Of a DNA stretch of 53,634 nt, positions 1-53,029 are shown in pieces. This DNA comes from Candidatus Shapirobacteria bacterium. GTDB lineage: Bacteria > Patescibacteriota > Microgenomatia > 0-14-0-10-38-17. The notes beneath the pieces are model-generated. The model was not told the origin of the DNA and did no database searches. It saw only the letters and a program-made list of their open reading frames with translations. The stretch covers positions 1 through 53,634 of the forward strand of contig JAGPNC010000004.1 in NCBI GenBank assembly GCA_018052565.1. Reading direction: 5' to 3'. Within the stretch, counting starts at the first letter, position 1, and each line of letters starts with the position of its first letter. The position numbers and the translations under genes are program-made.

Positions 1-306
1 TAAATAAGTTTAAAGCCAACCGTAGATCGTCCTGGCTAAAATACCATATTGTTTTGCCAAAAGGGAAGTCTTTTGCCCGGCTTTGACTTTAATAAAAATT
101 TCTCCCTTATTTCTTTAGGGATGGGTTCAAACATACAGGCATATCTGCACTCTCAGGCAAAGATTTAGTGTCTGATATACCGGAAACCTGTCAATAGGCA
201 ACCAACTCTTAGTCTACTATGGCGCCGCCGATCAGGTGATAGCGGTAGCTTCCGGCTCTTTTAAGAAATTAACCCAAAGTCTCAAGAAAGCGCTGGGAGG
301 AGAAGA

Positions 307-718
307 GTATTAAGTATCAAGTATAAAATAATCTCAAAGCTCAAGTCAGATAAACTCAGATGACAAATGTCAAATGGCATCCGCCAGCTGGCGGATTGCG
401 TTTTGTGATTTGAGTCCCTTGTGGTTGGGACATAATTCGTTATCATGACCCCACCAACGGCGAGGTAAGTTATTCTAATTATTCTAATTAACCTAATTAT
501 TATAAATAAATCCCAAATACCAAACCCCAATCCGCCCTAGGCGGATTATTTTTAGTTATTAGTTTGAGGATTGGAATTTCTTCGGGTCAATTAGAATAAT
601 TAGAGCAATTAGAATAATTTTTAACCTTTTTTTCGATCATAAATTTAATTTATGATAACGTTGAATTAAATTTACAATAGCAGTAAGAATTATATCCCGG
701 CCAATTAATACTTAATAC
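307..718. repeat. Composite palindromic MITE-like element, copy A (GTATTAAGTAT-type termini, nested hairpins)
   Basis: Starts GTATTAAGTATCAAGTAT (307-324) and ends AATACTTAATAC (707-718, its reverse complement). Inner inverted module 421-452 pairs with 652-702. Central AATTATTCTAATT / AATTAGAATAATT hairpin lies at about 468-622. The only ORF (282-530, minus) is low-complexity. Confidence 0.8.
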
Positions 719-2250
719 TATTCTTCCCCAAATACTTCTGCCGTATAGGAGAAAAGCTCCGTCTGGGGGTGGCGCCAACAGCCCGCCGGCAGACCGGCCT
801 TCTCAAGACAAAGCTGGTCTAAAAACTCTTCCCTCTCCCAGCCGGTTTCTTTGGCCACTTGAGGCAAGAAAGTCGCACTTCGATTGCCATATTTTAAATA
901 AACGCCGTGCTTGCCCATTTCGATTTCTTCAATCGAATTAATCTTTTGCAATGGCGATAAAACAGAAATTTCTATTTTTACTTTATCCAACTCCTCAGGA
1001 GTAAGGGGCGGAAAACGAGGATCATCAAAAGCGGCCGCCAGAGCCATTTTCTCCACCTTCTCCCAAAGAGGCTCATTGGCGGAAAAATCGCCAATACAAC
1101 CCCGTAGTTGGCCTTCTTCTTTTAAGGTTACAAAAACGCCCCGCTTTTGCGCCAACGCCGGGGTAGGAGGCGGTTGGTCAGGCACTTTTCCTTTTTCAAA
1201 ATAGCTCTCAAGCACCTGCCTTGCCCAGGAGAGAAGCATTCTTTTCCCTTCTTGGGAAAGTTCTCCTTGAGCTTTGTCTTCCCCGCTTTGGCTAATCAAC
1301 TTTGGCATCTTTAGCCAAAAAGCAATCGCGGCGTAGCCAACAGCCTGATCGGTCTGCCCGGTAATTTCCCCAGAATTAGTTAAGGAAAAAAGTTTTTGCT
1401 TTGCTGTCCCCAAAATTTGGCCCACCTTAAGCCCTACCCGAATAGCTTCTTCTCCACAAGCAAAAGTGGCCACCTGTGGATAAGTTCTTCCCAGCTCCTT
1501 AAGCGTTTTTAAAAAGAGCTCTTCTTTGCCGGAAAGAATCGCCGCCACCGTTTGCTCATCAACCGTCCGAGCCAAATCAGCCGGGGGATAGTGAGAAAGA
1601 TCAGAGGAAACCACCAAAAGAGTTTGCTCATTAAAAATATTGCTTATTTTTTGCGCTAATGACGCCAAAACATTCTCGTCTGTTTGGCCAAGCAGGATAG
1701 GGATAATTTTAAAGTTTTCCCCTAAAACTTTTTGCAAAAAAGGAAGCATCACCTCTAAACAATGCTCGTTTTGGTGAGGCAGGCGGTTAACCACAATCCC
1801 CGTCTCTTTATCTTCAAGACGGGTAATTTTTTCCCGATCCAGCGCCACCTTACCTAAGGGAGTCTGCCAAAAATCGCCGCCGTCAATGGCGGCGCCCAAA
1901 AAATAAACCTGGTGAGCCGGTCCCAAAAGAATCACGGTTTTAAAATTCCCCTCCCTCACTCTGGCAAAAGCCTGAGCCGCTACCGCCCCCGAATAAGGAT
2001 AGCCCGCGTGGGGGACAATCAAAAAATTAGGCGCTTTTTTTCCCTCCTTTAATGGCCCTGCTTTGGCCAAAAAAGACGCCACTTGCTCGGCCAGCGCTTC
2101 TTTCTCTGCCGGATAAAACTGACCAGCCACCGCCGGTTCTCTTATTAAAATTTTCTCCATTTTTTCTTTTGCCTTCAACGCCAAGGCTACTGCCAACACC
2201 ACCAATAATCCTACCAAAATCAAACTGCCAATGATTACCTTTTTCTTCAT
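718..2250 (-). CDS. Fusion protein: Memo-like (AmmeMemoRadiSam system protein B) + AMMECR1 (protein A), with N-terminal membrane anchor
   Basis: 510-aa ORF. The N-terminus is hydrophobic (MKKKVIIGSLILVGLLVVLAVALA). Memo-type motifs: REPAVAGQFYP, LIVPHAGYPYSG, SSDLSHY. AMMECR1-type C-terminal half: RGVFVTLKEEGQLRGCIG, DPRFPPL. Confidence 0.85.
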   Translation of the reverse strand: MKKKVIIGSLILVGLLVVLAVALALKAKEKMEKILIREPAVAGQFYPAEKEALAEQVASFLAKAGPLKEGKKAPNFLIVPHAGYPYSGAVAAQAFARVREGNFKTVILLGPAHQVYFLGAAIDGGDFWQTPLGKVALDREKITRLEDKETGIVVNRLPHQNEHCLEVMLPFLQKVLGENFKIIPILLGQTDENVLASLAQKISNIFNEQTLLVVSSDLSHYPPADLARTVDEQTVAAILSGKEELFLKTLKELGRTYPQVATFACGEEAIRVGLKVGQILGTAKQKLFSLTNSGEITGQTDQAVGYAAIAFWLKMPKLISQSGEDKAQGELSQEGKRMLLSWARQVLESYFEKGKVPDQPPPTPALAQKRGVFVTLKEEGQLRGCIGDFSANEPLWEKVEKMALAAAFDDPRFPPLTPEELDKVKIEISVLSPLQKINSIEEIEMGKHGVYLKYGNRSATFLPQVAKETGWEREEFLDQLCLEKAGLPAGCWRHPQTELFSYTAEVFGEE

Positions 2251-2288
2251 TAGCCTCTTGCTTTATTGTATAATATTAAGACAAAGAA

Positions 2289-2785
2289 AGTATCAAGTAT
2301 TAGGTATTAAGTATTAAGTATAAAAAAACAAAAAACAATTAGCTACAAGTTGTCTAAAAAAGCATAACAGTTATTGCTAAAAATGGAAAAACGAGAGCAA
2401 AAAATCAAATCATTCACAGACTTAGTCGCCTGGCAAGAAGCACATAAGTTGGCAATCTTAATCTATAAAGTGACTAAAAACTTTCCGAAAGAAGAAATTT
2501 ATGGTTTAACTAACCAAATCCGAAGAGCGGTAATTTCTATTTCTTCAAATATCGCCGAAGGATTTTCTCGCCAATCAAGGTTAGAAAAAAGGCAGTTTTA
2601 TTACCAAGCGTTGGGATCCTTAACCGAACTCCAAAATCAGCTCCTTTTAGCTAAAGATGTTGGGTATTTAAGCGAAGATAACTTTCAGGAAATTGCTAAT
2701 CAAACTGTCACCGTTAGCAAGTTAATAAATTCCCTTATTAAATTTGTCAGAAATACTTAATACCTAATACATAATACTTAATACT
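2289..2785. mobile_element. GTATTAAGTAT-bounded element, copy B, carrying a four-helix-bundle gene
   Basis: The 33-nt left end AGTATCAAGTATTAGGTATTAAGTATTAAGTAT (2289-2321) matches the reverse complement of 2753-2785 at about 29 of 33 positions. The single internal ORF has its stop codon inside the right repeat. Confidence 0.7.
2374..2760 (+). CDS. Four-helix-bundle protein (23S rRNA intervening-sequence protein / Avd-like family)
   Basis: 128 aa with family hallmarks: FTDLVAWQEAHKL, GLTNQIRRAVISISSNIAEGFSR, YQALGSLTELQNQLLLA. Confidence 0.85.
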   Translation: MLKMEKREQKIKSFTDLVAWQEAHKLAILIYKVTKNFPKEEIYGLTNQIRRAVISISSNIAEGFSRQSRLEKRQFYYQALGSLTELQNQLLLAKDVGYLSEDNFQEIANQTVTVSKLINSLIKFVRNT

Positions 2786-2789
2786 ACCC

Positions 2790-4865
2790 GTGGACAAGCG
2801 TTACCAACCCCAACTTGTTGAGGAAAAAATCTACCGGTTTTGGGAAGAGGAGGGATTCTTTACCCCCAAAATCGAAAAAGGGAAAAAGCCGTTTGTAATT
2901 ACCCTCCCGCCGCCGAATGTTACCGGCGGCCTTCATGCCGGCCACGCGATGTATGTAATCGAGGATATTATGACCCGTTATCACCGGATGAAAGGCGATC
3001 CCACTCTTTGGCTACCGGGTTTTGACCACGCCGCTATTGCCGTTGAATACTTAGTTAATCAAGAGCTAAAGAAAGAGGGCAAGACAAAGCAAGAAATCGG
3101 CCGGGGGGAATTTTTGCGCCGGGCTCAACAATTTGCCAACCAATCGCGCGACTATATCCGTCAGCAGCTCAAGCGATTAGGCTTTTCTCTCGACTGGTCG
3201 CGAGAAGCCTATACCATGGACGAAAAGCGCTCTTTAGCGGTAAAAACAGCTTTTAACAATCTTTACCAAAAAGGACTGATCTACAAGGGTGATTATCTGG
3301 TTAACTGGTGTCCGGACTGCCAAACAGTAATTTCTGACTTAGAAAATATTTATGAGGAAGAAAAAGGCGTTCTTTATTATCTTTCTTATGGCCCGATCAC
3401 CATTGCCACCACCCGGCCGGAAACCATTTTTGCCGATGTGGCCGTGGCCGTTCATCCCAAAGATTCCCGTTTTAAAAAACTGGTTGGCCAAAAAGTGCCC
3501 CTACCTTTAACCAACCGTTTAATCCCCGTTATCATCGACGAGGCGGTTGACCAAAAATTTGGCAGCGGTGCCCTAAAAATCACCCCTGCCCATGACCCTA
3601 CCGATTTTGAGGTTGGCCAACGCCACCGTCTTCCCGCTCCTAAGGCAGTTGACGAAAAAGGCTGTCTCACCAATCTGGCCGGTCCTTTCGCCGGATTAAA
3701 AGTAGACGAAGGAAGAAAAAGAGTGGTTGAAGCTTTGCGCCAAAAGGGATTTTTGAAAAAAGAGGAGCCAATTATTCACCAGGTCGGCCATTGCCAGCGT
3801 TGCGGTACTACTACTGAAACCACCATTTCCCAACAATGGTTTTTAAAAACCAAACCCTTAGCCCAAAGGGCGATTAAGGCTGTTAAAAGCGGCCAGGTAA
3901 AAATTATTCCCAAGCATTTTGAAAAAAGTTATTTCCACTGGCTTGAAAATATCCACGACTGGTGTATTTCCCGCCAGCTTTGGTGGGGCCATCCTCTCCC
4001 GGTTAAAGGTGAAACTGATGTTCTCGATACCTGGTTTTCTTCCTCGCTTTGGCCAATTTCTGTTTTTGGCTGGCCCAAAAAAACCACTGACTTAGCTTAT
4101 TTTTATCCTACCACTGTTCGCGAGACTGCTTACGACATTCTTTTTTTCTGGGTTGCCCGGGAGATGATGATTTGCCAGGAGCTCACCGGTAAATCTCCTT
4201 TTAAAATTATTTACCTTCACGGCCTAGTGCGCGATGAGAAGGGACGAAAATTTTCTAAAACTAAAAAAATCGGCTTTGATCCACTGGAGATAATAGAGCA
4301 ATATGGCGCTGATGCCTTACGCCTAGCCTTAGTTTACGGCACGAACGCTGGCCGCGATCTCTTAATCTCCGCCGATACTGATAGGGTTATCAGCATGCGC
4401 AATTTTACTAACAAAATCTGGAATGCCGCCCGATTCATTCTAATGAATCAAGAGGCTCAAGCCTCAAGCCCCAAGACTCAAGGCAAATTAGAAATTCTCG
4501 ATTTTAAATTCCAAAACAAAGACGATCGGCAGATACTTTCTTCCCTGAAAAAAACAACCAAAAGCGTTACTAAAAAGATGGAAAATTACCGTTTTGGCCA
4601 AGCCGCCGAAGAGCTTTATGGCTTTTTTTGGCATGAATTCTGCGATGTCTATCTTGAACAAGCCAAAAAAAGACTTTATGATGAGAGTGACCCCAAAGGG
4701 CGAAAAGAAACATTGATAGTTTTAACTTTTGTTTTAAAAGAAAGCCTGAAGCTGCTTCATCCTTTTATGCCTTATGTGACCGAGGAGATTTGGACTAACC
4801 AATTGAAAGAACCAAGGCCCTTAATTATTTCGTCCTGGCCAAGAAAGGTCACGGGAGGGCATTAA
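2790..4865 (+). CDS. valS: Valine--tRNA ligase (short form, no C-terminal coiled coil)
   Basis: GTG start. Motifs: PPPNVTGGLHAGHA (HIGH), TRPETIFADVAVAVHP and ITPAHDPTDFEVG (editing domain), DVLDTWFSS. The KMSKS position reads KFSKT. 691 aa. Confidence 0.9.
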   Translation: MDKRYQPQLVEEKIYRFWEEEGFFTPKIEKGKKPFVITLPPPNVTGGLHAGHAMYVIEDIMTRYHRMKGDPTLWLPGFDHAAIAVEYLVNQELKKEGKTKQEIGRGEFLRRAQQFANQSRDYIRQQLKRLGFSLDWSREAYTMDEKRSLAVKTAFNNLYQKGLIYKGDYLVNWCPDCQTVISDLENIYEEEKGVLYYLSYGPITIATTRPETIFADVAVAVHPKDSRFKKLVGQKVPLPLTNRLIPVIIDEAVDQKFGSGALKITPAHDPTDFEVGQRHRLPAPKAVDEKGCLTNLAGPFAGLKVDEGRKRVVEALRQKGFLKKEEPIIHQVGHCQRCGTTTETTISQQWFLKTKPLAQRAIKAVKSGQVKIIPKHFEKSYFHWLENIHDWCISRQLWWGHPLPVKGETDVLDTWFSSSLWPISVFGWPKKTTDLAYFYPTTVRETAYDILFFWVAREMMICQELTGKSPFKIIYLHGLVRDEKGRKFSKTKKIGFDPLEIIEQYGADALRLALVYGTNAGRDLLISADTDRVISMRNFTNKIWNAARFILMNQEAQASSPKTQGKLEILDFKFQNKDDRQILSSLKKTTKSVTKKMENYRFGQAAEELYGFFWHEFCDVYLEQAKKRLYDESDPKGRKETLIVLTFVLKESLKLLHPFMPYVTEEIWTNQLKEPRPLIISSWPRKVTGGH

Positions 4866-4920: not shown

Positions 4921-5052
4921 AAGTCAAAAATTAAAATTTAAAAGTTAAAATTGCAAGTTAAAATTAAAAATTTTGAATTTTTCATTGGACTTTTGACTTT
5001 TTTCGCCAGAGGCGCACCCGCCTTGGGCGGGAACTTTTGACTTTTAACTTTC
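4921..5052. repeat. AAAGT-word hairpin element, copy 1, with embedded GC hairpin
   Basis: Left arm AAGTCAAAAATTAAAATTTAAAAGTTAAAATTG pairs with right arm CTTTTGACTTTT...ACTTTTGACTTTTAACTTT. A GC insert CGCCAGAGGCGCACCCGCCTTGGGCGGGAAC interrupts the right arm. An SD and ATG at 5075 follow directly. Confidence 0.75.
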
Positions 5053-6223: not shown

Positions 6224-6297
6224 GTATTAAGTATTGCGTATTAAGCAAAATTCAAAAGTTAAAAGTTTTTTACTTTTGAATTTTGACTTTTAACTTT
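6224..6297. repeat. Partial GTATTAAGTAT word block plus short AAAGT-word hairpin
   Basis: GTATTAAGTATTGCGTATTAAG (6224-6245) is followed by the palindrome AAAATTCAAAAGTTAAAAGTTTTTTACTTTTGAATTTTGACTTTTAACTTTT. Confidence 0.7.
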
Positions 6298-6356
6298 TTT
6301 TATACTTGCTGCTTGACACTATTTCCCAAAACGCCCTAATGATAAAATTATCATGT

Positions 6357-6932
6357 ATGGCAAAAGAGGAAAAGAAAGAAAAGGGGGCTCAGCTCGCATT
6401 ATTACCGCATTATTACCGCATTATTACCGAAAACTTTATTAAAAAGCCTATTTTCCCGAGCGTTTTGCTTTTGGCGCTTTTCGTAATTTCTTTCTCTCTT
6501 GCTCCTCGAGGTCGCTTCTATGAAGCAAAAAGGGAAATAATCCGAAATCCTCAGAATTTCTCTGCCCATTTGGTTTTGCTTGATGAACTTATCTTGGCAG
6601 GCGAATTTGAGAAAGCCGAGAAAGAAATTAGTTTTTTGGAAGAAAATTATTTTAAGCTGAAAGAAGAAGAAAGGGAGCGGTTTTGGCAGAAAAACCTTGC
6701 TTTTTGGGAAGAAAATCCGACGAGGCAAGAAAAGTTAATCGAAAATTGGCAAAAATTTTTAGAAAAAAATCCGGATTATAAAATGGGGTGGCTGACGCTT
6801 GCTTATTACCAGCAAAAAGCAACCAAAGAAGATGAGGTAAAATTTTCACTTCAAAAAGCCTACGAACTTGATCCGGGGCTTCCTCTTGATTATCCCTCTT
6901 TATTTTCTTCTTTTTCTTCCTCCGATTTTTGA
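6357..6932 (+). CDS. Membrane-anchored TPR-like protein, function unknown
   Basis: The ORF is open from 6306; ATG at 6357 (MAKEEKK) was chosen as start. It has one TM segment, then helical repeat-like sequence (WLTLAYYQQKATKEDEVKFSLQKAYELDP). The 3' end overlaps convergent rplY by 43 nt. Confidence 0.5.
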   Translation: MAKEEKKEKGAQLALLPHYYRIITENFIKKPIFPSVLLLALFVISFSLAPRGRFYEAKREIIRNPQNFSAHLVLLDELILAGEFEKAEKEISFLEENYFKLKEEERERFWQKNLAFWEENPTRQEKLIENWQKFLEKNPDYKMGWLTLAYYQQKATKEDEVKFSLQKAYELDPGLPLDYPSLFSSFSSSDF

Positions 6933-9290: not shown

Positions 9291-9589
9291 AACGGGTTAG
9301 TTACTCGTCTCCCAAAAAAGCAAGGATCCTCTTTTAATCGGTAAGGGCAAAAAAAATTAAAATCGTTGAATTGTTCCGCTATGGCAGGATTTCTCGTAGG
9401 AAGAAATTGAATAATGGAGCAATTTAGCCACTTATTTTTTCGGTAAAGTAAAAATCGTAAGATCTTAAGAGAAGGAAAATACCGGTTATTTTTACCCAAA
9501 GCTTTTCTCTTCGCAGTTACCACTATCAGAAAGAGAGCAATTGCCCTTCTTAGTACCCATTGATATTTTCATAATGGGAGAGATGGTCT

Positions 9590-11386
9590 TTACCAGCTCC
9601 CCCCGCCTCCGCCTCCAAAACCTCCGCCCGATGATCCTCCGCCCGATGATCCTCCGCCGGAGAAACCAGAACCCCCTGACCAAGAAGATTTTCCTGAAGG
9701 CGAGGAGGCCAAAGTGGTCACTGAACTCTTATAAAAACTACCCAGATCGTGATGAAAACTCGCAGCGGTTACCCCTCCAAAATAGTCAGGTGGTTTAATA
9801 TTTAAATCCGCCATATCTTTGGTTAACTTATCGACCACTCCCAAAGAGATCGCCAAAGGCAAAATTTCCTCCAAAAATAAATGTTTTTCGGCAATTTCTT
9901 CCCGCCACTTGCCCTTACCGATATACCAGTGAAGCCCTTCAGCCTGCCGGTAGAGAGAATATCCCCATGCCGTCCGCCGGGGCATTGATTTAGCCAACCA
10001 TAGGGTTGGCCAGAGAAATAAAATAGACAAAACCATGGGAAAGAAATTAGCATAAGAATCGGCAAAACTTAAGAGAAGAAGAAAGCTCCCTAAAAATGCC
10101 AATATAGAAATAGTCAACCATTTATTTTTTGTTTTCTCCGGATTACTAAAAAAAATCTTTTCCCTAACTAGGCCGTCGTAAAGTTTTCTTTTAAACCCGG
10201 GAAGACAAAGATAAAAGTCATTTTTTAAACTAGATAAACTGACCTCTCTGCCGGTAGCGAACAAGCTGGTTAAAAGATACTGTTGATAATCTTTTAATTT
10301 TTCTTCGTCTTTGCCCTCTTTAATAAAAAAGTAATTATTTTTCTTGCCGATTAAGCCCCTTTCTTCTATTTTTTTAATCTGTAAATAGCCTAAACGAGCC
10401 AGCTCGACTATTTCGGCAACAACGTCTTGGATATCTACCTTTTCGTCAATAATTGTCCCTACTTGGGCAGGAGTTAAATTATCAATAGGAGAATAAACCA
10501 TGGGTAAATACTTGTGGTGGAAGGGAGAAACTGCCTCTGTTCTTTCACTATCAGGCCGATAATAAATATGGTTATCGCTTAAATATTTTCGATCGCGCCC
10601 CTTTTTGTACCAAATAATAAACATGATCAAGAACGGGAAAATAGCAACTAAATACCCCCAATTATTTGTTAAGAAGGTAATTATTTTTTCAATTAAGCCC
10701 GGAAAGTTAAGCTGGTTATCCTTGCTTAGGGCAACCACAATGGTAAAATCATCGCCGGGGCGAAGAGAGATTTTTGAACTAAAAAGTGCCTCTTGGGCAT
10801 TAAAGTGGCTGTTGCACTGTTGCTCTTGACCACCGGCCTGGCCGGCAAAACAAGAAACTTTAGTTATTTCTGCCCAAGGCGACTTAACAACGGCCGATGA
10901 TTCTTTAATGGTGGCGTCCCATTCGTGGCCGGTTACGTTCCAATAGAACTCTTCGTGATCATCATACGATAACAAGACTTTATCAATGGTATAGCCGATT
11001 ATATAAGTATGAGAGCCGGTGATTGTTTTTTGAGGGTCACCAATTTGGATCTTAATGCTTTGGGAATAAGGGCTAACCGTATATTGATAGCTTTCTCCTT
11101 GCTCGTTTGTCACCGAGAGAACTTCTATTTTGGCTTTTATTGTTTTACCGCCGCTAGTATAAATGACGGGGATAATACGGAAAATGCCGTGCTTAGGAAA
11201 AGAAAAATTAACCGTAATTGTTTCTTTTATTGTTAAAGAAGTATCCTGATTGATAGTAATTTCGCTGGCAAAATTATCAATAATGTATTCGCTTGACGCT
11301 GCCGCCTTAATTAGCGGTATGTCCCAAAAAAGAGAAAAGAAAAGAGCCAAGGTAACAAGTAAAAACCGCTTTCTCATATTTTTCAT
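9590..11386 (-). CDS. DUF2207-like membrane protein with Gly/Ser-rich C-terminal tail
   Basis: Signal-like MKNMRKRFLLVTLALFFS at 11386 was chosen over the track start 11488, which would overlap the upstream gene. It has a large extracytoplasmic N-domain, TM helices, and the terminal tail GGSGFSGGGSSGGGSSGGGFGGGGGGSW typical of this family. Confidence 0.7.
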   Translation of the reverse strand: MKNMRKRFLLVTLALFFSLFWDIPLIKAAASSEYIIDNFASEITINQDTSLTIKETITVNFSFPKHGIFRIIPVIYTSGGKTIKAKIEVLSVTNEQGESYQYTVSPYSQSIKIQIGDPQKTITGSHTYIIGYTIDKVLLSYDDHEEFYWNVTGHEWDATIKESSAVVKSPWAEITKVSCFAGQAGGQEQQCNSHFNAQEALFSSKISLRPGDDFTIVVALSKDNQLNFPGLIEKIITFLTNNWGYLVAIFPFLIMFIIWYKKGRDRKYLSDNHIYYRPDSERTEAVSPFHHKYLPMVYSPIDNLTPAQVGTIIDEKVDIQDVVAEIVELARLGYLQIKKIEERGLIGKKNNYFFIKEGKDEEKLKDYQQYLLTSLFATGREVSLSSLKNDFYLCLPGFKRKLYDGLVREKIFFSNPEKTKNKWLTISILAFLGSFLLLLSFADSYANFFPMVLSILFLWPTLWLAKSMPRRTAWGYSLYRQAEGLHWYIGKGKWREEIAEKHLFLEEILPLAISLGVVDKLTKDMADLNIKPPDYFGGVTAASFHHDLGSFYKSSVTTLASSPSGKSSWSGGSGFSGGGSSGGGSSGGGFGGGGGGSW

Positions 11387-14925: not shown

Positions 14926-15215
14926 GTATTAAGTATTAGGTATTAAGTAAAAACGCAAAATGCAAAGATTAGGAATCAAAACCTAGATCAAAAACCAAAA
15001 ATATCTTTGGGCTCTGGTTTTGATCTTTGATCTTGGTTCTACACTTTGATCTTTGATGTTTGGTCTATTCTTTTACTTTTCCGTCAGCCCCGCCGTGGCG
15101 GGGTCAGGATCTTTCTCTATTAGTAAAACAGATCCTGAATCAAGTTCAGGATGACGTTGAATTAAATTTACAACAGCATTGGGAATTATGTCCCAACCAC
15201 TTAATACTTAATACT
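14926..15215. repeat. Composite palindromic MITE-like element, copy D
   Basis: Starts GTATTAAGTATTAGGTATTAAGTA directly after the rnhA-like ATG and ends ACTTAATACTTAATACT. The right inner module 15147-15200 is nearly identical to 652-702. The centre is a GATCAAAG-word hairpin plus the GC hairpin CCCCGCCGTGGCGGGG. Confidence 0.8.
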
Positions 15216-16469
15216 ATTTTTTACCCAATACCCTCCCCCCAAAAGAAGCATCAATAGCTCCGTCCCTAGCGTGATTATCGCCGCCCCTTGCGTCCCCAGG
15301 CGGGGGATCAAAAGCCAATTTCCCCCCAGATTAAAAGCCAAAGCCAAAAGTGAAAACCAGAGTAGCTTTCTTTGCTCTCCTCGCGCTACAAGAAGATAGC
15401 CAAACAAATGATTTAAAAAAACTGCCACCAACGCCGGGCAGAGAAGGCGTAAAATTGGCATCGATGGCAAAAAGGCTTCTCCGCCTAAAATTCTGACCAA
15501 AAAGGGCGCCAAGAGAAAAGTAATGGCACCTAATGCCAAACCTGCTAAAAAAAGCAGCCTGCCTCCTGTTTGCACCATTTCTTTTACTTTCTTTGGCGAG
15601 GCACCGGCCAAAACCGGAAAAAGGCTGTTCATAAAAAAAGCCGCCAAAAGTATTAAGTTGCCGTAAATTTTATAAGCCAAACCATAATAGGCCACATTGA
15701 CGCTTCCCAAAAAGGTTTTTATAAAAAAGTTGTCAATCCCCTCATCATAGGTGGCAAAAACTAATTGCCGGAGGCCTAAAGGGAAAGCTTCTTTAAAGAT
15801 ATTTTTAATTGGCTTCTTTTCCAACAAGGACCATCTAAACTCTCCTTTTTTAAAAATAAGTAAAATCGCCCCCAAACCACTAAGAGCGCCCGCGAGAACC
15901 CAAAAAATTATGAGAAGAACAAGATTGTCCTTTCCTAAGAAAAAAAGAATTAAACTTGCTAATAAAAAAAGAACCGAGGCAAAAACCTCAAAAAAAACCT
16001 TTTTCTCAAAACGCAAATCCGCCATAAAAAGAATATCGGCCGCCGTTCTTAAGTTGAGGAAAAAAAGCGAAAGCGAGGCAATTAAAGCCGCCAACCCCAA
16101 ACCAGCAAACTGGGGAAGAAAAAAAGCCGCCAAATTAAAAACCAAAAAAGAAAACAGAGAAAGTCCCATTTTCAAAACCAAGGCGCTGGTGAAAATTGCC
16201 TGCCGGTTAATCTTTTTCTGGGAAATCATTTTCACCGCCGTGGCGCTGGTGCCAAAATCGGCCAAGTTGAAAGAAAGCAAAACGGCGGTGGTTAAAAATA
16301 AATAATCACCATAGTCTTCTGCTCCCAAAAGTCGTGTTAGAAGAAAAACCGCCAGAAAAGAACAGGCCAGCATTACTCCTCGGCCCAAAATTTGCCAGAG
16401 GGTATTTTTGAAAACGAGGCGAAAGCCGGGAAAGACCATTTTTCTAACCATTTTATTAACGTAAGCCAT
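15201..16469 (-). CDS. Polysaccharide biosynthesis flippase (MOP/Wzx-like)
   Basis: 422 aa, about 12 TM segments, typical MOP flippase layout. The last five codons (NSIKY-stop) are encoded by the repeat terminus. Confidence 0.75.
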   Translation of the reverse strand: MAYVNKMVRKMVFPGFRLVFKNTLWQILGRGVMLACSFLAVFLLTRLLGAEDYGDYLFLTTAVLLSFNLADFGTSATAVKMISQKKINRQAIFTSALVLKMGLSLFSFLVFNLAAFFLPQFAGLGLAALIASLSLFFLNLRTAADILFMADLRFEKKVFFEVFASVLFLLASLILFFLGKDNLVLLIIFWVLAGALSGLGAILLIFKKGEFRWSLLEKKPIKNIFKEAFPLGLRQLVFATYDEGIDNFFIKTFLGSVNVAYYGLAYKIYGNLILLAAFFMNSLFPVLAGASPKKVKEMVQTGGRLLFLAGLALGAITFLLAPFLVRILGGEAFLPSMPILRLLCPALVAVFLNHLFGYLLVARGEQRKLLWFSLLALAFNLGGNWLLIPRLGTQGAAIITLGTELLMLLLGGGYWVKNSIKY

Positions 16470-16513: not shown

Positions 16514-16598
16514 CTAAAAGTTAAAAGTCAAAATTTAAAAGTCAAAAGTACAAGTTAAAATTCAAAAGGAAAATAGAAACTTTTAACTTTTGAATTAA
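16514..16598. repeat. AAAGT-word hairpin element, copy 3
   Basis: CTAAAAGTTAAAAGTCAAAATTTAAAAGTCAAAAGTACAAGTTAAAATTCAAAAGG...AACTTTTAACTTTTGAATT imperfect palindrome. Confidence 0.7.
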
Positions 16599-16635: not shown

Positions 16636-17862
16636 TTATACCCTCCCTAGCCCTAAAACCACGGCGAACAAAAGAAAATTTTGCGGCAGGGTAAGCCAAT
16701 AATGGTCGAAAAAACCAAGAAAAAAAATCATCGCCAACGCTCCTCGCGCCAAAGGAAATGAAGATTTTTTAACTTTTTTAAGCCAAAAGAACAGCAGAGT
16801 AATAAAAATTAAAAGGCCGGTTAAGCCGGCTTGCGAGGCAACGAGCAGATAAATATTGTGGACTGGTTGGAGCAGATTAACATCCTTGCGCGTCGCGGAA
16901 ATTATTTCCGCTTGGGCAGGGATAAAATTGCCCAAACCCACCCCCAAGAGAGGCCGCTCTTTTATTAAAATCAAGGCATTTTTAGCCAAGAGCAAGCGGT
17001 CATTAATTGATTTTGGCTCTACAAGCCCTATTTCAAAAGAAAGAGACAAAACCGCTAGGCAAAATAACAACCCCAAGAAAAATCCCGCCTTAGATATTTT
17101 TCTCGAAGAAAAACGTTGCCACAAAAAAAATATCAGCGCCAATCCCGCCCCCAAATAAGCGGCAAAAGAAAAAGTCAAAAGAAGAGTCAAACCAAAAAAG
17201 AGAAAAGCCAATTTAAAAAAAATCTTGTTTTTAAAACTGGCCCTTGCTCCCCATAAAAGAAGAAGTAAAACCAGCAAAAAGCCAGCCAAAGAATTGGGAT
17301 GGGAAAAAGTGGCGTAAGGCCGCAAAAACACGTGAGAACCCAATTGCGCTAGAGCAATTCCGGGAGTGGCCAAATTAAAAGAACGCTCCCCCAGCCACCA
17401 AAAAACTCCCCCTAAAGAGCCTCCTTTGAAAACCTGCCCCCAAGCTAGAAAAGAGCTTAGCAGGCTTCCCAAAAGCAGAGCCTGCGGCCAAAGAGGAAAA
17501 TAAAATTTTCTCAAGACAAAAATTAAGAAAAAAAATTCACCTGCTCTTAAAAACCGAGAGAAAGAAACCAGTGGACGAAGAGAAAAAAGAATATTAAAAC
17601 CTAAAAAAGATAAAACCAGGCAAAAAATTAAAATTTTGGTTTTATTCTTTCCATCTTTTAAGAAAGCTTTTTTAAGAAGAGGCCAGGAAAAAAGAAGCAG
17701 GCAAAAAATAAGCAAATCGGTTAAATAAACAGCGGGGGAAAGAAAATCAACCCTTAATCCCCAAACATAAGCTTGTCGAGGCCAAAAATGATATCCTAAT
17801 TGGGTCGGCAAAAGAAGAAAAAGGCTCCAGAGAAAAAATTCTTCTCTCTTTTTTATCTCCAT
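16636..17862 (-). CDS. O-antigen ligase-like (Wzy_C) polytopic membrane protein
   Basis: 408 aa with multiple TM segments. The loop motif QPVHNIYLLVASQAGLTGLL resembles the Wzy_C signature. Confidence 0.7.
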   Translation of the reverse strand: MEIKKREEFFLWSLFLLLPTQLGYHFWPRQAYVWGLRVDFLSPAVYLTDLLIFCLLLFSWPLLKKAFLKDGKNKTKILIFCLVLSFLGFNILFSLRPLVSFSRFLRAGEFFFLIFVLRKFYFPLWPQALLLGSLLSSFLAWGQVFKGGSLGGVFWWLGERSFNLATPGIALAQLGSHVFLRPYATFSHPNSLAGFLLVLLLLLWGARASFKNKIFFKLAFLFFGLTLLLTFSFAAYLGAGLALIFFLWQRFSSRKISKAGFFLGLLFCLAVLSLSFEIGLVEPKSINDRLLLAKNALILIKERPLLGVGLGNFIPAQAEIISATRKDVNLLQPVHNIYLLVASQAGLTGLLIFITLLFFWLKKVKKSSFPLARGALAMIFFLGFFDHYWLTLPQNFLLFAVVLGLGRV

Positions 17863-19100: not shown

Positions 19101-19212
19101 AAAATTCAAAAGTCAAAATTCAAAAGTCAAAAGTGCAAGTTAAAATTAAAAAGTAAAAAACTTTTAACTTTTGAATTGAAATTTTGCCTTTTGAATTTTA
19201 ACTTTTAACTTT
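19101..19212. repeat. AAAGT-word hairpin element, copy 4
   Basis: AAAATTCAAAAGTCAAAATTCAAAAGTCAAAAGTGCAAGTTAAAATT...CTTTTAACTTTTGAATTGAAATTTTGCCTTTTGAATTTTAACTTTTAACTTT. The SD and ATG follow immediately. Confidence 0.75.
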
Positions 19213-23339: not shown

Positions 23340-24622
23340 TTAAGTATCAAATGAATGACTACACCTTTAATTTAGCAAAACGCATAGGAAATTTTTGCTC
23401 TGCGATTGGTATTAGGTCGCTATCATTGGGCTGAACATACAAAGTTAAGTTTTGTTTTACAACATCAAGTTTAGCTAAAACGTAAGTATTAAGGTATTCT
23501 GGACTTAAGTAAATTTGCTCTTTGAAAATCCGAATCGCTGGTTGTTCTTGCTCGTTGGTTCCAACTAGCCCGATAAGATAGATGGTCATCCTTGGTTTGG
23601 GCTCGAACTCTTTGGCTAAAAGATCTTGGTAGCCAAAGCTCTTATCCAGAAATCTCCCTGGTAACTTTCTTGGTAAGGAGGAGTAGGCTCGATACTCTTT
23701 CTCAAATCTGGCGACTACCTGGTCAATCTCAGCTAGGCTGGTGAAAGTATATCTTTTCCAAACTTTTTTTGGCAAAAACGCTATTAGTTCCTTCTACTGG
23801 ACCATTCATCCATGGTTTTTTGGAGGCGATGAAGAGAGGGGTAGCCCCTAAAAGCAAGAGATATCGGATGAAAGGAGAAATGATGCGGGGATTTTTCCCT
23901 GAAGCAGTAAAACTAAAGCCATTATCTAACCAAAGAGTATCAGGGATTGGTTATTGTTTCCAATCCCGGCTGGTAGTTTCCAGGGCCACCTCCATCCCCT
24001 GGTTGATAACTCTCTTTATTAATCTTAAAGTAGAAGGCTTTTTGTAGAACCTAGTAAAGAAATGGATTGGTTTGCTTGAGCCATAGATGTACTTGTGGCC
24101 AATAAAATCTATTCCCTCTTGGATTTTGCCCAATCCAGAAAGGGTAACTAAAGGATAATGTTGGTTTTCAACTACCTTGAGCATTCCCCGCCTACTCTTA
24201 GGAAAAGATTGATGGATAACTCTGGCCACAAAAGCCCGTTTTAAAGACCGGCTGTTACCATAGAATTTTCCATACTCATCTAATATTTTATCAGGTCCAA
24301 AGAAAAGGCAGAATGGGAAACAAAGCTTTCCCTAATTTTAATCACTCTTTGGGCCTCTACCTTAGTCAGAGAACGTCTTTTGCCTTTGGGCCAACCCCGC
24401 CTGTCCTTGGTAGAGCTACTTTTGCTCTTAGCCCACCGTTGGACAAAAGAACGAGAGACAGCAAGCTTTCTGGCAATTACGGATTTGTCAAGGCACTTTT
24501 GGAAGAAAAGCTCTTTGACTTGAGAGCGCTTCTTTTCTAAAGTCTGCTTGTCATACATAGGGGAATTTTACCCCAACGATGCTGATAGTGGCAAAGACTG
24601 TAGTCATTCATTTGATACTTAA
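23340..24622 (-). mobile_element. Decayed insertion sequence with 24-bp perfect terminal inverted repeats
   Basis: TTAAGTATCAAATGAATGACTACA at 23340-23363 is the exact reverse complement of 24599-24622. The 1283-bp element carries a broken HTH + DDE/integrase-core transposase gene. Confidence 0.8.
23359..24558 (-). pseudogene. Transposase (HTH + rve-like DDE core), disrupted
   Basis: ORF1 is an HTH (VIARKLAVSRSFVQRWAK). A frameshift near 24300 leads to FFGPDKILDEY...IDFIGHKYIYG. An in-frame TAA precedes PIPDTLWLDNGFSF...KKPWMNGPVEGTN. A further frameshift in a poly-A run leads to the C-terminal 138-aa ORF. Confidence 0.75.
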
Positions 24623-24659
24623 TACCTAGCCGCTACCAGGTAACAGTAAAAAACGCCCG

Positions 24660-27589: not shown

Positions 27590-28651
27590 CTACCAAGATG
27601 CTATTTTACGATTTTGGCGCCACCGGCCGGGGAGAGCGGCGCCGCACTTGGGGCAGGTGCCGTTTTGATCAAAACGGGCAATTTCGTAGCCGCGGCGTTT
27701 GATAACAAGCTGGTCGCAGGCAGGGCAGAGGGTGTCATCGTCCGAAGATGGTCCCAAATTGCCGGCATAAACGTATTTCAGGCCTCTTTTTAAAGCTTCT
27801 TGACGGGCTTCTTTAATTATTTGTGGCGGAGTAGCAGGCAGGTCTTTTAGCTTCCAGGAAATAGCGGGCGAGAAAGCGCTTAAATGCCAGGGGATAGCTT
27901 CGCCTAATTTTTCCCTAATAAAGTCGGCAATTTTATTTAAAATAGTCATCTTGTCGCTGAGGGTGGGAATAACTAGGGTGGTTACCTCCAGCCAAACTCC
28001 CTCTTTAACCAACCTTTGGCAATTTTTTAAAACCGGCGCCAGCTTTGCCCCGCAGACTTTCTGATAAAATTTTTCCTCACTTGATTTAATATCAATATTG
28101 GCGGCATCAAGATAGGGAAGAATGAGGTCTAAAGTTTTATCGCTCATAAAGCCATTGGAAACCCAGATGTTTTTCAAACCGGCCCGGCGGGCAAGCTTCA
28201 TTGTTTCTAGGGCATATTCTAAGAAAACCGTTGGCTCATTATAGGTATAAGCGATAGAAAGGCATTGGTTTTGGCGGGCAAGGATGACAATTTGCGAGGG
28301 GGCGAGGTTTTCTCCCCAAAAAAGACGGGAACAGGCCTCTTTTTTCCCTTTTTGGTTGCTAAGTTGGGAAATTTCCCAATTTTGGCAGTTAAGGCAGGAA
28401 AAATTACAGCCAAGAGTGCCAAAAGAAAAAGCAAAACTCCCCGGCAGGAAATGGTAAAGCGGCTTTTTTTCCACCGGATCAATGCCTAAGGCGGCCGCTC
28501 TGCCATAAACCAGAGAGTAAAATCGGCCGTTTTGATTTTCTCGCACCCCGCAAACCCCTAACCTGCCTAGCGCAATTTGGCAGGAATGATGGCAGGCAAA
28601 ACAACCAACTGCCTGGTTTGATTTTTCTTCCCAAAGAAGAGCTTCTTTCAT
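27590..28651 (-). CDS. AmmeMemoRadiSam system radical SAM enzyme
   Basis: VGCFACHHSCQI...GVCGVRENQNGRFYSL, CNFSCLNCQNWEISQ (CxxxCxxC), and a C-terminal CPAC...CPKC zinc-ribbon-like pair. Start chosen at MKEALLWEEK (28651) rather than the track start 28717. Confidence 0.85.
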   Translation of the reverse strand: MKEALLWEEKSNQAVGCFACHHSCQIALGRLGVCGVRENQNGRFYSLVYGRAAALGIDPVEKKPLYHFLPGSFAFSFGTLGCNFSCLNCQNWEISQLSNQKGKKEACSRLFWGENLAPSQIVILARQNQCLSIAYTYNEPTVFLEYALETMKLARRAGLKNIWVSNGFMSDKTLDLILPYLDAANIDIKSSEEKFYQKVCGAKLAPVLKNCQRLVKEGVWLEVTTLVIPTLSDKMTILNKIADFIREKLGEAIPWHLSAFSPAISWKLKDLPATPPQIIKEARQEALKRGLKYVYAGNLGPSSDDDTLCPACDQLVIKRRGYEIARFDQNGTCPKCGAALPGRWRQNRKIASW

Positions 28652-28779
28652 TTGCGAAAAAAAATTATCAGCCTCTTGATTTAGTTTAAGGATAGCGAAA
28701 GAAGAAGAAATTATCAAGGAGAGGGGAAATTAAATGGCTAGATTGTTGAGTTGCTCAATTGCTAGTGGCAGGGTGGTGG

Positions 28780-28960
28780 TTAGGAATTAGTAGTTGGGTA
28801 GTTAGGGAAAAGATGTTTTTTCCTAAGCTCCTGCCTACGTCTCTACGAACTACTAATTTAGCTGTCATTCTGACGAAAGTCAGAATCTATTTAGTCTTAA
28901 GACAGATTTCGGATCGGCGTCCGGAATGACATTTACGCCAAGCCGTCTTTTGCGAACAGT
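28780..28960. repeat. Word-built hairpin (AGTAGTT words) plus GNRA-capped hairpin module, copy H
   Basis: GGAATTAGTAGTTGGGTAGTTAGGG pairs with CCTAAGCTCCTGCCTACGTCTCTACGAACTACTAATT. It is followed by ATTCTGAC-GAAA-GTCAGAAT (28867-28886). Confidence 0.6.
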
Positions 28961-29713: not shown

Positions 29714-30010
29714 GTATTAAGTATTAAGTATAAAAAATATAAAAAAATTAAATCGCTCTATTGCTAAATTTCTGCAAAAAATGCAACTGTCATCATGGGC
29801 CCGTTGCAAATGTTATTTGCTAGGGGGTAAATTATTTTAATTATTCTAATTAACCTAATCTCTAAAGAAAGTCCAAATTGCCAAAAGCCCCAATCCCCAA
29901 ATAATTTTTAATTAGGTTTTGGGATTTCTTTAGGTCAATTAGAATAATTAGAGCAATTAGAACAATTTTTTGATCCGCTATTAATTTCAGGATAACGCTG
30001 GTAACAGGCT
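29714..30010. repeat. Composite element, copy E (left GTATTAAGTAT words, conserved loop hairpin, AATTAGAATAATT hairpin)
   Basis: GTATTAAGTATTAAGTAT at 29714-29731; GCCCGTTGCAAATGTTATTTGCTAGGGGG hairpin; arms 29829-29857 and 29930-29967. The right boundary is diffuse. Confidence 0.7.
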
Positions 30011-30067: not shown

Positions 30068-30841
30068 ATGATGAGCCAACTTCTTCTCTCCTGGAACGTT
30101 AACGGGCTTCGGTCTGTTTATCAAAAGGGGGCCTTAAATCAGGTTTTTCAGGAAAAAAAGCCGGATATTTTTTGCCTTCAGGAGGTTAAGGCCTCGCCAG
30201 ACCAATTGCCAGCCAATCTTGCCAAACTTGACGGCTATCATTTTTATTGCCATCCGGCGCAGAAAAAAGGCTATGCCGGCGTGGCTATCTATACGAAAGT
30301 TAAGCCTAAAGGGGTGAGGGAGAGGTTAGGCCTTTCCCGCTTCGACAGCGAAGGCCGATTTTTGGGTCTTAGCTTTGGCTCTTTTTTCTTGGCTAATTTT
30401 TATTTCCCTCACGGCGGCCGCCAAAAAGAAAATTTAGATTACAAACTAGAGGTTTATGATTATTTTTTGCGCTGGATTAGCCAGCATAAGGAAAAGAATT
30501 TAGTTATCGGCGGCGATTTTAACATTGCCCACGAACCTATCGACTTAGCTCGTCCTAAAGAAAACGAGAATAACACCATGTTTACTCCCCAGGAACGAGA
30601 GAAAATTGATGAACTAGTGGGTCTTGGTTTTGTTGACAGCTTTCGGCTTTTTAACAAAGAGAGCGGTCACTACACCTGGTGGCCATACTGGGGAAAAGCG
30701 CGGGAGCGCAATTTAGGCTGGCGGCTGGATTATATTTTTCTCTCTCCTAGTCTAAAGAAGAACCTCAGGGGAGCTTTTATTTTTCCCCAAATTACCGGCT
30801 CTGACCATTGCCCGGTGGGGGCGACTTTCGAGATAAAATAG
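30068..30841 (+). CDS. xth: Exodeoxyribonuclease III (AP endonuclease)
   Basis: SWNVNGLRS, DIFCLQEVK, GGDFNIAHEPIDL, SDHCPV. The stop codon overlaps the first base of the next repeat. Confidence 0.9.
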   Translation: MMSQLLLSWNVNGLRSVYQKGALNQVFQEKKPDIFCLQEVKASPDQLPANLAKLDGYHFYCHPAQKKGYAGVAIYTKVKPKGVRERLGLSRFDSEGRFLGLSFGSFFLANFYFPHGGRQKENLDYKLEVYDYFLRWISQHKEKNLVIGGDFNIAHEPIDLARPKENENNTMFTPQEREKIDELVGLGFVDSFRLFNKESGHYTWWPYWGKARERNLGWRLDYIFLSPSLKKNLRGAFIFPQITGSDHCPVGATFEIK

Positions 30842-31057
30842 TATTAAGTATTAAGTATAAAAAGTGGCCGGGGTATAATTCGTCATCCTGACCCCGTTAC
30901 AAATGATATTTGCTACGGGATAAATTATTCTAATTATTCTAATTGACCTAAGGAAATCCCAAAACCCAATTAAAAATTATTTGGAAATTGGGACTTTTGG
31001 CAATTTGGAATTTTTTTAGAAATTAGGTTAATTAGAATAATTAGAGTAATTGAGTAG
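30841..31057. repeat. Composite element, copy F (same left modules as copy E, hairpin core inverted)
   Basis: GTATTAAGTATTAAGTAT at 30841-30858; GTGGCCGGGGTATAATTCGTCATCCTGACC at 30864-30893; CCCCGTTACAAATGATATTTGCTACGGG hairpin; arms 30922-30951 and 31024-31057. Confidence 0.75.
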
Positions 31058-34071: not shown

Positions 34072-34223
34072 TCTTTAATAATTTTATCATCTTAACCCAA
34101 AATAACCGCCTAATTTGATTTTAGAAAACAGAGGGGATAAACTGGTAATATACATCAGCTATCTTTTTAACCATTGTTTAGTGAAGCTTCAAATCAGGTT
34201 GTAGTCAACCAAGAATGCACTCT

Positions 34224-34387
34224 CAAATTCAAAATTCAAAATGCAAAAGTCAAAATTTCAATTAAAAAGTTAAAAGTTTTTTACTTTTTAATTTTTCCGC
34301 CAGCCCCCGCCACGGCAGGGCCAGAGGCGGACCCGCCTTTGGCGGAAACTTGCACTTTTAACTTTTGACTTTTAACTTTTAACTTTC
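34224..34387. repeat. AAAGT-word hairpin element, copy 5, with embedded GC hairpin
   Basis: CAAATTCAAAATTCAAAATGCAAAAGTCAAAATTTC...ACTTTTAACTTTTGACTTTTAACTTTTAACTTT. The GC insert TTCCGCCAGCCCCCGCCACGGCAGGGCCAGAGGCGGACCCGCCTTTGGCGGAA is homologous to that of copy 1. Confidence 0.75.
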
Positions 34388-34405
34388 TAAAAGGAGGTGA
34401 AGATT

Positions 34406-34669
34406 ATGAGCATTCGGGTGCAAAAAAGAGACGGCCGCTTGGAAGAATTTGATGTTAATAAAATCCGCCAAGGCTTGGCCGCCGCCGGGGCTACCCCCGC
34501 GCAGGTGGAGGCCATTACCAAAGAAGTAGAAAGTTGGGCTAAGGATAACGCTACCAAAGGTTTTATCCGCACCGTCGCCATCAAGGAAAAGGTCTTATCT
34601 TCCCTACGGCTAGTTAATCCTCAAGCCGCCACCGCTTTTGAAAGCTACCAAAAACCCGCGGAGGGCTAA
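34406..34669 (+). CDS. Stand-alone ATP-cone domain protein
   Basis: IRVQKRDGRLEEFDVNKIRQGL...IKEKVLSSL. ATG at 34406 follows AAGGAGG by 7 nt. Confidence 0.75.
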   Translation: MSIRVQKRDGRLEEFDVNKIRQGLAAAGATPAQVEAITKEVESWAKDNATKGFIRTVAIKEKVLSSLRLVNPQAATAFESYQKPAEG

Positions 34670-45335: not shown

Positions 45336-45339
45336 AAAA

Positions 45340-52796: not shown

Positions 52797-53029
52797 GGTC
52801 ATCCTACCCGATTTTAAATAATATTTGCGGGCTGGGTTGAACAAAGCGTCATCCTGACGAAAGTCAGGATCAGTTTTTAATTTTCAATTTTCATTTCTCA
52901 ATTTTCAATCAATTTTCATTTAACTAATAAAACAATTTTCAAAATAAAACTAACCTTTTTTCAAAAAAACTAATAGATGAAAATTAAAAATTGTAAATTG
53001 AAAATTAGTCTTTAACTTTTAACTTAAGA
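52797..53029. repeat. Composite hairpin element, copy G (conserved loop hairpin, GNRA hairpin, GAAAATT-word hairpin)
   Basis: GGTCATCCTACCCGATTTTAAATAATATTTGCGGGC; ATCCTGAC-GAAA-GTCAGGAT (52851-52870); AATTTTCAATTTTCATTTCTCAATTTTCAATC...GATGAAAATTAAAAATTGTAAATTGAAAATT. Confidence 0.7.

Follow-up and report, generated by a model that had tools for sequence, protein, structure and literature searches.

What kind of element lies behind the long palindromic segments that recur between the genes of a 53,634-nt stretch of contig JAGPNC010000004.1, from a Candidatus Shapirobacteria bacterium (hereafter the window)? An earlier note on this DNA had described six such segments as bounded by a repeated 11-nt word, GTATTAAGTAT. 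On balance, and with some reserve, we favour the view that they belong to a cassette family of Patescibacteria that resembles intervening sequences (IVSs), together with mosaic relatives devoid of an open reading frame (ORF), in which arrays of a 7-nt unit provide the outer stem and probably act as long RNA stems. The earlier note missed the 7-nt periodicity of the words, the protein-coding cargo of the segment 2289-2785 and the tie of the terminal arrays to the PF05635 protein family.

Heptamer arrays and PF05635 genes

The word GTATTAAGTAT was found at all six sites previously listed and at one further site, 24615-24625 (-). Allowing up to one mismatch, it occurs 21 times in the window as compared to 0.73 expected from dinucleotide-preserving shuffles, and none of 100 shuffles reached 21. 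However, the 11-mer is not the basic unit. Using Tandem Repeats Finder (TRF), we observed that it spans two overlapping copies of the repeat in a tandem array of period 7, (GTATTAA)n, with 2.1-4.9 units per array in the window. Period-7 repeats of 2.1-8.6 copies were detected at more than 20 window sites by the same program, and the strict period-7 and period-9 arrays are intergenic without exception. As in long simple sequence repeats (LSSRs) and short tandemly repeated repetitive (STRR) sequences, the 7-nt units stand head to tail in runs longer than expected by chance and are mainly intergenic.

Reverse-complement arrays terminate the segments 307-718, 2289-2785 and 14926-15215 (A, B and C), in agreement with the reverse-complement words reported there. 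The inverted terminal arrays of these three are 80-91% complementary, and the segments starting at 29714 and 30841 (E and F) have an array at a single end only. The terminal arrays are paired in the minimum-free-energy folds of A, B, C and F (z -8.0 to -3.5). The arrays directly adjoin stop or start codons of neighbouring genes. Since at least three GTATTAA units in a row contain TAA in every frame of both strands, genes seem to take their stop codons and C-termini from the arrays. Beyond the arrays (705-735 and 15199-15231), A and C remain similar over the final codons of two genes that are not related to each other (...GTATTTGGGGAAGAATAG and ...GTATTGGGTAAAAAATAG).

The segment 2289-2785 had been taken for a non-coding palindrome. 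It is in fact a gene lying between 33-nt inverted arrays (cassette B). The coding sequence, at 2383-2760 (+), specifies a 125-aa four-helix-bundle (4HB) protein that matches PF05635 ("23S rRNA intervening-sequence protein") with an E value of 3.5e-39 and TIGR02436 with 125 bits, as compared to a cut-off of 24. The nearest solved structure is 2GSC, the pentameric S23p protein XCC0516 of Xanthomonas (E 6.5e-21). The left array (2289-2321, +, 4.9 heptamer units) is 91% complementary to the right one (2753-2785, -). The latter overlaps the stop codon of the 4HB gene and leaves 4 nt to the GTG start codon, at 2790, of the valyl-tRNA synthetase (ValRS) gene. In both the minimum-free-energy and the centroid folds, these arms enclose all of the cassette as its closing stem. 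The cassette is located between the Memo-AMMECR1 and ValRS genes and not in 23S rRNA. Assignment of the 4HB protein to Avd, the accessory protein of diversity-generating retroelements, was rejected: the NCBIfam model DivGenRetAVD gave 28 bits for a cut-off of 80, and the window has no reverse transcriptase. Both the ValRS gene and the RNase H gene (ATG ending at 14925) begin 0-4 nt from an array, which leaves no room for a Shine-Dalgarno sequence. Translation would therefore have to start without one, or after RNA processing.

Are such arrays a regular companion of PF05635 genes? Proteins more than 60% identical to the 4HB protein number in the thousands, and seven were fetched. Homologues 63-81% identical to it have GTATTWW arrays on both sides, in the same orientation, in differing gene contexts. 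The neighbours are a gene for an fn3 protein and one for an ABC transporter in Microgenomates UTCPR1 (L058), and genes for a large surface protein and a response regulator in Woykebacteria (L062). In Woesebacteria (L064, identical to L072) the cassette stands upstream of a RadA-like gene; elsewhere it lies between the subunit genes of pyruvate:ferredoxin oxidoreductase (L068) or in the order atpG, 4HB, atpD (L070, 1468-1917). At these five loci the arrays reach the start and stop codons and the neighbouring genes. A Paceibacterota homologue (L066) showed merely weak arrays of a related unit. Since the contexts of the 4HB gene vary while its ends stay constant, we infer that the arrays belong to the cassette and that the cassette moves.

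Further cases were found in a metagenome-assembled genome of Patescibacteria (L003), whose Memo protein is 69% identical to that of the window and in which the ValRS and Memo genes are ordered as in the window. In this genome, (TTCAAAA)n arrays in inverted orientation flank a second, unrelated 4HB gene (PF05635, E 2.5e-23), and a single GAATTAAGTAT word lies outermost. In addition, a 278-aa ORF of L003 (1465-2298, -) has a PF05635 domain (E 1e-10) between inverted arrays of 10-11-nt units (TTTTCCCGTA and TACGGGAGAGC), at 1629-1685 and 2079-2116, inside the ORF. This reflects either a cassette inserted into a gene or an over-extended ORF.

Among plasmids, 4HB genes detected by tblastn came from Nostocales, further cyanobacteria and Riemerella. 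Of the twelve examined, most are accompanied by period-7 arrays, either on a single side or on both, and these are usually inverted. The heptamer unit varies by lineage: GGGTGTA, GGAGTCA, AAGGTTC, GGAGATA, AAAGGGA and ACAGGTG were observed at these loci. Several of the plasmid genes lie between cas genes, in the orders cas6, 4HB, cas4 and cas10, 4HB, cmr3 (L076, L078).

In Xanthomonas, 70-75 convergent pairs of GGGAATC heptamers have been reported, to which no role was assigned and in connection with which S23p is not mentioned (Rehm 2015, PMC4692102). A gene of the XCC0516 type was therefore predicted to lie between such arrays. This was borne out in X. citri and Dyella, where the order accB, 4HB, accC is found with inverted GGGAAT(N) flanks of complementarity 17-19 (L085, 584-1032; L086, 584-1030). 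The atpG-atpD, accB-accC and cas loci are strongly conserved operons, and in them the arrays take up the spacers around the PF05635 gene. Heptamer arrays flank PF05635 genes in four bacterial phyla.

The association was quantified using 20 PF05635 genes from Patescibacteria, cyanobacterial plasmids and Riemerella, a small sample in which several cassettes are related by descent, with controls from one genome: flank complementarity of at least 11 was observed for 14 of the 20 as compared to 1 of 41 other window genes (Fisher p 2e-8), and complementarity of at least 14 for 11 of the 20 as compared to none of the 41 (Fisher p 4e-7). In the open-access literature we found nothing relevant joining the names of the PF05635 family with heptamer, tandem or inverted repeats, though an earlier account may exist elsewhere, and nothing relevant on Patescibacteria or the candidate phyla radiation (CPR) in connection with MITEs (miniature inverted-repeat transposable elements) or heptanucleotides.

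Mosaic elements without a gene

A, C, E and F are mosaics that differ in module content and length. Their copies align well beyond the 11-mer. Self-BLAST gave 78% identity between 464-622 and 29826-29970, 80% between 635-735 and 15131-15231, and 91% between 29830-29958 and the reverse complement of 30923-31051. The second inverted module of the earlier note, here called M4, was recovered as described at 421-448 (+), 651-704 (-), 15150-15200 (-) and 30864-30891 (+). It reads GG(Y)(Y)GGG(A/G)(Y)ATAATTC, followed by an optional insert of ~26 nt containing TTGTAAATTTAATTCAA and then by CGTYATCMTGA. Of the nested hairpin proposed for every copy, the folds support A (-124 kcal/mol, z -8.0 as compared to shuffles), C (z -7.65) and F (z -5.1), and do not support E.

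Element A starts with the array GTATTAA GTATCAA GTAT (307-324, +), which pairs with the right array (705-719, -) in the minimum-free-energy fold. The right array adjoins the Memo-AMMECR1 gene (718-2250, -) and overlaps its stop codon. Inside, a GC hairpin, ATCCGCCAGCTGGCGGAT, followed by a T-rich tail (379-396, +), has the appearance of a terminator and recurs in L003 and in many metagenome loci. Module M4, GTGGTTGGGACATAATTCGTTATCATGA, at 421-448 pairs in the fold with its inverted copy, with the 26-nt insert, at 651-704; it resembles a promoter -10 box followed by a hairpin start. Between the two lies a palindrome of 9-nt arrays, (TTATTCTAA)n and (TTAGAATAA)n, at 467-620, centred on a hairpin at 529-547. 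An ORF at 282-530 (-) has no family match and is probably spurious. Upstream of A, positions 1-306 hold no convincing gene; an open frame of 46 codons without an obvious start ends at the TAA of the first heptamer, 307-313. M4 was also considered as a sigma-70 promoter, TTAAGT or TTGAGT being visible by eye 15-17 nt 5' of (T/C)ATAAT. A consensus scan made no call, the number of promoter-like sites in 250-2850 is not above that of shuffles, and this assignment is a guess only.

In element C, the left array (14926-14949, +) abuts the RNase H start codon at 14925 (-) and the right array (15199-15215, -) overlaps the stop codon of a flippase-like gene (15201-16469, -). The repeats and the fold delimit an inner palindrome of TTTGATC/GATCAAA heptamers at 14960-15066. 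A hairpin module, GTCATCCTGA-ACTTGAT-TCAGGAT (15132-15155, -), shows compensatory T:A and C:G changes among its copies, and the M4 copy found by self-comparison at 15150-15200 has the insert. Element E consists of an array of 2.7 units (29714-29731, +), a 9-mer palindrome (29826-29970) and, at its degenerate right end, an M4 remnant, CGTTATCCTGA (29987-29997, -). In element F, the first base of the array (30841-30858, +) is also the last one of the xth stop codon; the array is followed by M4, GTGGCCGGGGTATAATTCGTCATCCTGA, at 30864-30891, and by a 9-mer palindrome at 30923-31051. A short copy at 6224-6298 (+), seen by TRF and self-comparison, consists of a GTATTAA array (6224-6245) and a hairpin of AAAAGTY heptamers (6246-6298).

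We considered whether the non-coding copies could be simple deletion derivatives of cassette B. Using the 4HB protein as tblastn query against the window and the 42 metagenome loci described below, no remnant ORF was detected within A, C, E or F, nor was a 4HB gene next to the metagenome arrays; this idea was therefore dropped.

Part of this mosaic system is another family of heptamers, AAAAGTC/AAAATTC. Besides 6246-6298, it is found at 4921-5051, downstream of ValRS; at 16514-16596, by TRF and self-comparison; at 19101-19212, as a hairpin with 53-nt arms that are 81% complementary; and at 34222-34409, where inverted arrays surround GC-rich hairpins. At 52845-53025, a GTCATCCTGACGAAAGTCAGGAT hairpin is followed by looser inverted arrays, TCAATTT and AAAATTA (pair at 52870-53025), and an isolated GTCATTCTGACGAAAGTCAGAAT hairpin module lies at 28864-28886 (+). 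The hairpin GTCATYCTGA-loop-TCAGRAT is present in 31 copies in 274 kb of related loci. At its variable pair, T:A is observed 21 times, C:G 8 times, T:G twice and C:A never (Fisher p 6e-6). The variation is compensatory, and the wobble pairs give a hint of RNA.

Altogether, about 12 element loci make up ~4% of the bases of the window and about one fifth of its non-coding DNA, in line with the heavy load that the earlier note had pointed out. Its statement that no named family fits also holds as regards Rfam: the whole window gave no match at gathering thresholds (no rRNA), and relaxed scans of the elements returned solely plant miRNA-precursor models at 18-27 bits, as compared to thresholds of 90-211, that is, noise. 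No tRNA or tmRNA was found in the window.

A metagenome scan with GTATTAAGTATTAAGTATAAAAA showed that 42 contigs carry the array. From the outside inwards, the order is (GTATTTG/GTATTAA)n, an A-run, inner arrays and a central GC hairpin, often TCCGCCAGCTGGCGGA, followed by mirrored arrays. The inner units are CTCAAAA, CGCAAAT, GGCAAAT, AAAAGTC and the like, with other hairpin modules interspersed, and paired arrays lie ~10 to ~430 nt apart. The polarity 5'-GTATTAA...TTAATAC-3' outnumbers the reverse one by 14:1, though both would fold equally well. Viral contigs gave no match to the 23-mer array pattern; their nine matches to a degenerate M4 pattern (L006-L014) were judged to arise by chance from the degeneracy of that pattern.

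In L003, the word GTATTAAGTAT occurs 11 times as compared to 0.15 expected, and a full element at 17478-17790 has the TCCGCC hairpin as in the window. Its ValRS-Memo spacer holds, in place of the 4HB cassette, a gene for an NYN-domain protein, a predicted RNase (9366-9944, -), and other modules. The start codon of the NYN gene overlaps a GTATTAAGT-ATG array. Filled and empty sites, which the earlier note had suggested looking for, were not what a closer relative (L057, xth 89% identical) revealed. At the site of E, L057 has an array of 4.7 units instead of 2.7 and lacks ~200 nt including the 9-mer palindrome. At the site of F, the 9-mer palindrome is kept, with extra bases in its central loop, and the ~80-nt segment made of array and M4 is replaced by other sequence. 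At the level of sequence, the comparison with these relatives thus shows change by array slippage and module replacement.

Proposed RNA stems and competing explanations

The elements of the window would represent a lineage-wide, mosaic, hairpin-forming intergenic family whose outermost stem is 5'-(GTATTAA)n...(TTAATAC)n-3'. The (GTATTAA)n arrays would be the conserved ends of a small PF05635-gene cassette, of which the window holds one complete example, 2289-2785. A, C, E, F and the short copy at 6224 would be ORF-less relatives carrying, between or beside their arrays, nested arrays of heptamers and 9-mers, terminator-like hairpins rich in GC, the GTCATYCTGA hairpin and the TATAAT-containing M4 box. 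Modules may be copied between loci. Since the elements fill stop-to-start spacers, they probably share transcripts with the adjacent genes. In such transcripts, pairing of the inverted arrays would give a long stem of ~17-33 bp, with imperfections. By analogy with ORF-bearing IVSs of 23S rRNA, RNase III could cut this stem, which would part the flanking cistrons and free the cargo.

Several observations weigh against this proposal. No RNase III gene was found in the window. Element E (29714-~30030) folds no better than shuffles (z -1.6), its ends being unpaired and without a terminal partner array, and the left array of F has no partner either. By tblastn, none of the 42 metagenome loci has a PF05635 gene near the array, and most arrays are therefore not attached to the gene. 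In the Pseudanabaena cassette (L076) the arrays are direct instead of inverted, and in one Nostoc cassette (L075) they are non-complementary. The composition of the sample and of the controls in the flank statistic, given above, counts on the same side.

The closest known systems are the ORF-bearing IVSs of 23S rRNA in Leptospira and Coxiella burnetii (PMC4990558). That of Coxiella is 428-444 nt long and has a 28-bp terminal stem, an S23p ORF and an RNase III cut in mid-stem (PMC4990558). Cassette B resembles these IVSs in its size (~430-500 nt), in its enclosing terminal stem (~28-33 bp) and in a PF05635/S23p ORF of ~120-125 aa that has no good Shine-Dalgarno sequence. A sporadic distribution, read as horizontal spread, is also common to both. 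In contrast to the IVSs, cassette B lies between protein-coding genes and not in helix 9, 25 or 45, its stems are made of tandem heptamers, and most members of the family in the window have no ORF.

The arrays themselves resemble the heptamer simple sequence repeats (SSRs) of Xanthomonas (GGGAATC) and Nostoc (GGGGAYT) (PMC4692102) and of Beggiatoaceae (TAACTGA; MacGregor 2015, PMC4679880), which are also intergenic tandem 7-nt units, typically in 2-5 copies. The TAACTGA arrays often end a few nucleotides from a start codon (PMC4679880), and the length of heptamer arrays differs between related species (PMC4692102, PMC4679880). Unlike these repeats, the arrays of the window have a GTATTAA unit, form the outer layer of nested mosaics with further modules and are tied to PF05635 genes; neither PMC4692102 nor PMC4679880 mentions S23, intervening or four helix.

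If it holds genome-wide, this link would explain where many heptamer arrays come from, suggest a candidate ligand of the PF05635 protein and define an element class riding in essential operons of very small genomes, in which intergenic signals are poorly understood. It would join two loose ends that can be tested together. Heptamer repeats have no known function (PMC4692102, PMC4679880), and PF05635 proteins, which have solved structures and are the ORFs of IVS elements, have none either (PMC4990558); yet the PF05635 gene is, in our small sample, usually found between inverted heptamer arrays. In practice, short-read assemblies of Patescibacteria are interrupted at these arrays, from which genes can also obtain their ends and stop codons.

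A broader version can be put forward as a tentative idea. Cyanobacterial STRR sequences are heptamer-type repeats. PF05635 genes, so far encountered only as ORFs within certain 23S rRNA IVSs, could be the cargo of a widespread cassette found inside conserved operons (atpG-atpD, accB-accC, cas), whose ends are inverted 7-nt arrays of lineage-specific unit, and the excess of heptamers, including the cyanobacterial STRR, GGGAATC and GTATTAA, could derive in part from such cassettes and their ORF-less derivatives. The pentameric protein would then recognise the arrays for movement or for RNA processing.

Mosaics of extragenic hairpins are known from other bacteria. Bacterial interspersed mosaic elements (BIMEs) built of repetitive extragenic palindromes (REPs), the related REPINs of enterobacteria and pseudomonads and the pneumococcal BOX elements vary in the number and orientation of their modules, lie within operons and at gene ends and reach many copies per genome. 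The elements of the window are analogous to them in mosaic organisation alone: no REP-type unit (an imperfect palindrome of ~35 nt) is present, the repeated cores being short GC hairpins and arrays of heptamers or 9-mers; the window was found to contain neither a Y1 nor a RAYT gene; and one member carries a gene. The Correia (nemis) MITEs of Neisseria are co-transcribed intergenic inverted repeats whose ends fold in mRNA and are cut by RNase III, and they have promoter-like boxes. However, Correia elements are uniform, with a TA target duplication and an IHF site, and none of these was seen in the window elements.

The possibility that the elements are classical MITEs, non-autonomous DNA transposons with the heptamer arrays as terminal inverted repeats on which a transposase from another part of the genome would act in trans, was examined on its own evidence. 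It would account for the inverted ends of A, B and C, for the similarity of copies at separate loci over 100-160 nt (78-91% identity), for the unrelated contexts of the 4HB cassette and for contigs of other assemblies that break at arrays. Nevertheless, no target-site duplication was found at A, B, C or the atpG/atpD locus (L070). Around A and C, the inverted repeat continues into the flanking sequence, and the "ATA" often seen ahead of the first unit has the look of a degenerated unit of the repeat and not of a TA duplication. The copies are also mosaic in modules and length, with 10 to 430 nt between paired arrays, L057 has altered arrays and modules where empty sites would be expected, and no transposase, integrase or reverse transcriptase is encoded among the window genes. 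We consider this explanation unlikely. The earlier proposal of a modular MITE-, BIME- or Correia-like element or a structured RNA accordingly stands as far as a hairpin mosaic of BIME or BOX type is meant, and is not supported for a strict MITE.

The omega repressor binds heptad arrays. By the same token, the heptamers could be iterated DNA sites for the pentameric 4HB protein or another factor that organises or regulates the neighbouring genes. The fixed array polarity would fit, since both polarities fold equally, as would the fact that the unit tracks the protein subfamily, GTATTWW accompanying the 63-81%-identical proteins of Patescibacteria and other units the distant homologues. Arrays of ~5 units also stand beside a gene whose homologue is a pentamer (2GSC; PMC4990558). 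On the other hand, co-inheritance of gene and array explains the same correlation without binding, most metagenome arrays have no nearby 4HB gene, and the inner hairpin, with its T:G wobbles and no C:A, argues for pairing in RNA. Action on DNA therefore seems doubtful to us.

Neutral origin was also weighed, in which replication slippage in AT-rich spacers makes heptamer microsatellites and the palindromes are functionless. Copy number indeed varies between close relatives (2.7 and 4.7 units at the site of E), and heptamers are already on record (Mrazek 2007, cited in PMC4679880 and PMC4692102) as the most abundant class of long SSRs, which is put down to slippage of the polymerase. But the same unit is kept between genomes whose proteins are 69% identical and between classes of Patescibacteria, the array polarity is fixed, the inverted pairs stand at gene boundaries and specifically around PF05635 genes, and the associated hairpin has compensatory substitutions, all of which make a purely neutral origin improbable. 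Lastly, an assembly artefact, that is, collapsed or chimeric low-complexity sequence, can practically be set aside: short-read contigs of other assemblies do end within arrays (L002 at window position 2782), but two independent assemblies from other samples reproduce 1590-3391, both arrays of cassette B included, at 99.8-100% identity, and orthologous elements are present in L003 and L057.

Other features of the window

The single word at 24615-24625 (-) overlaps in part a perfect 24-nt inverted repeat, 23340-23363 and 24599-24622, which itself includes part of GTATTAAGTAT. The ~1.26 kb between the two arms hold three small ORFs (138, 92 and 92 aa), without Pfam match. This segment may be another array-bounded cassette with a different cargo.

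Downstream of the short copy, a perfect 11-nt repeat, (CGCATTATTAC)x3.2, lies at 6395-6429 inside an ORF (6306-6932), and is kept as its reverse complement in L003 (5277-5307), the 69%-identity relative. Longer tandem repeats were observed at 46220-46996, where 10.4 copies of a 72-nt unit encode the leucine-rich repeats (LRRs) of a 1160-aa S8 subtilase-LRR protein (46022-49504, -); two cohesin-domain genes lie just upstream of this gene, at lower coordinates (44499-45912). The gene that separates elements A and B (718-2250) encodes a fused AmmeMemoRadiSam B+A protein (Memo and AMMECR1, 510 aa), and the sole radical-SAM gene of the window (27590-28717) lies 25 kb away from it.

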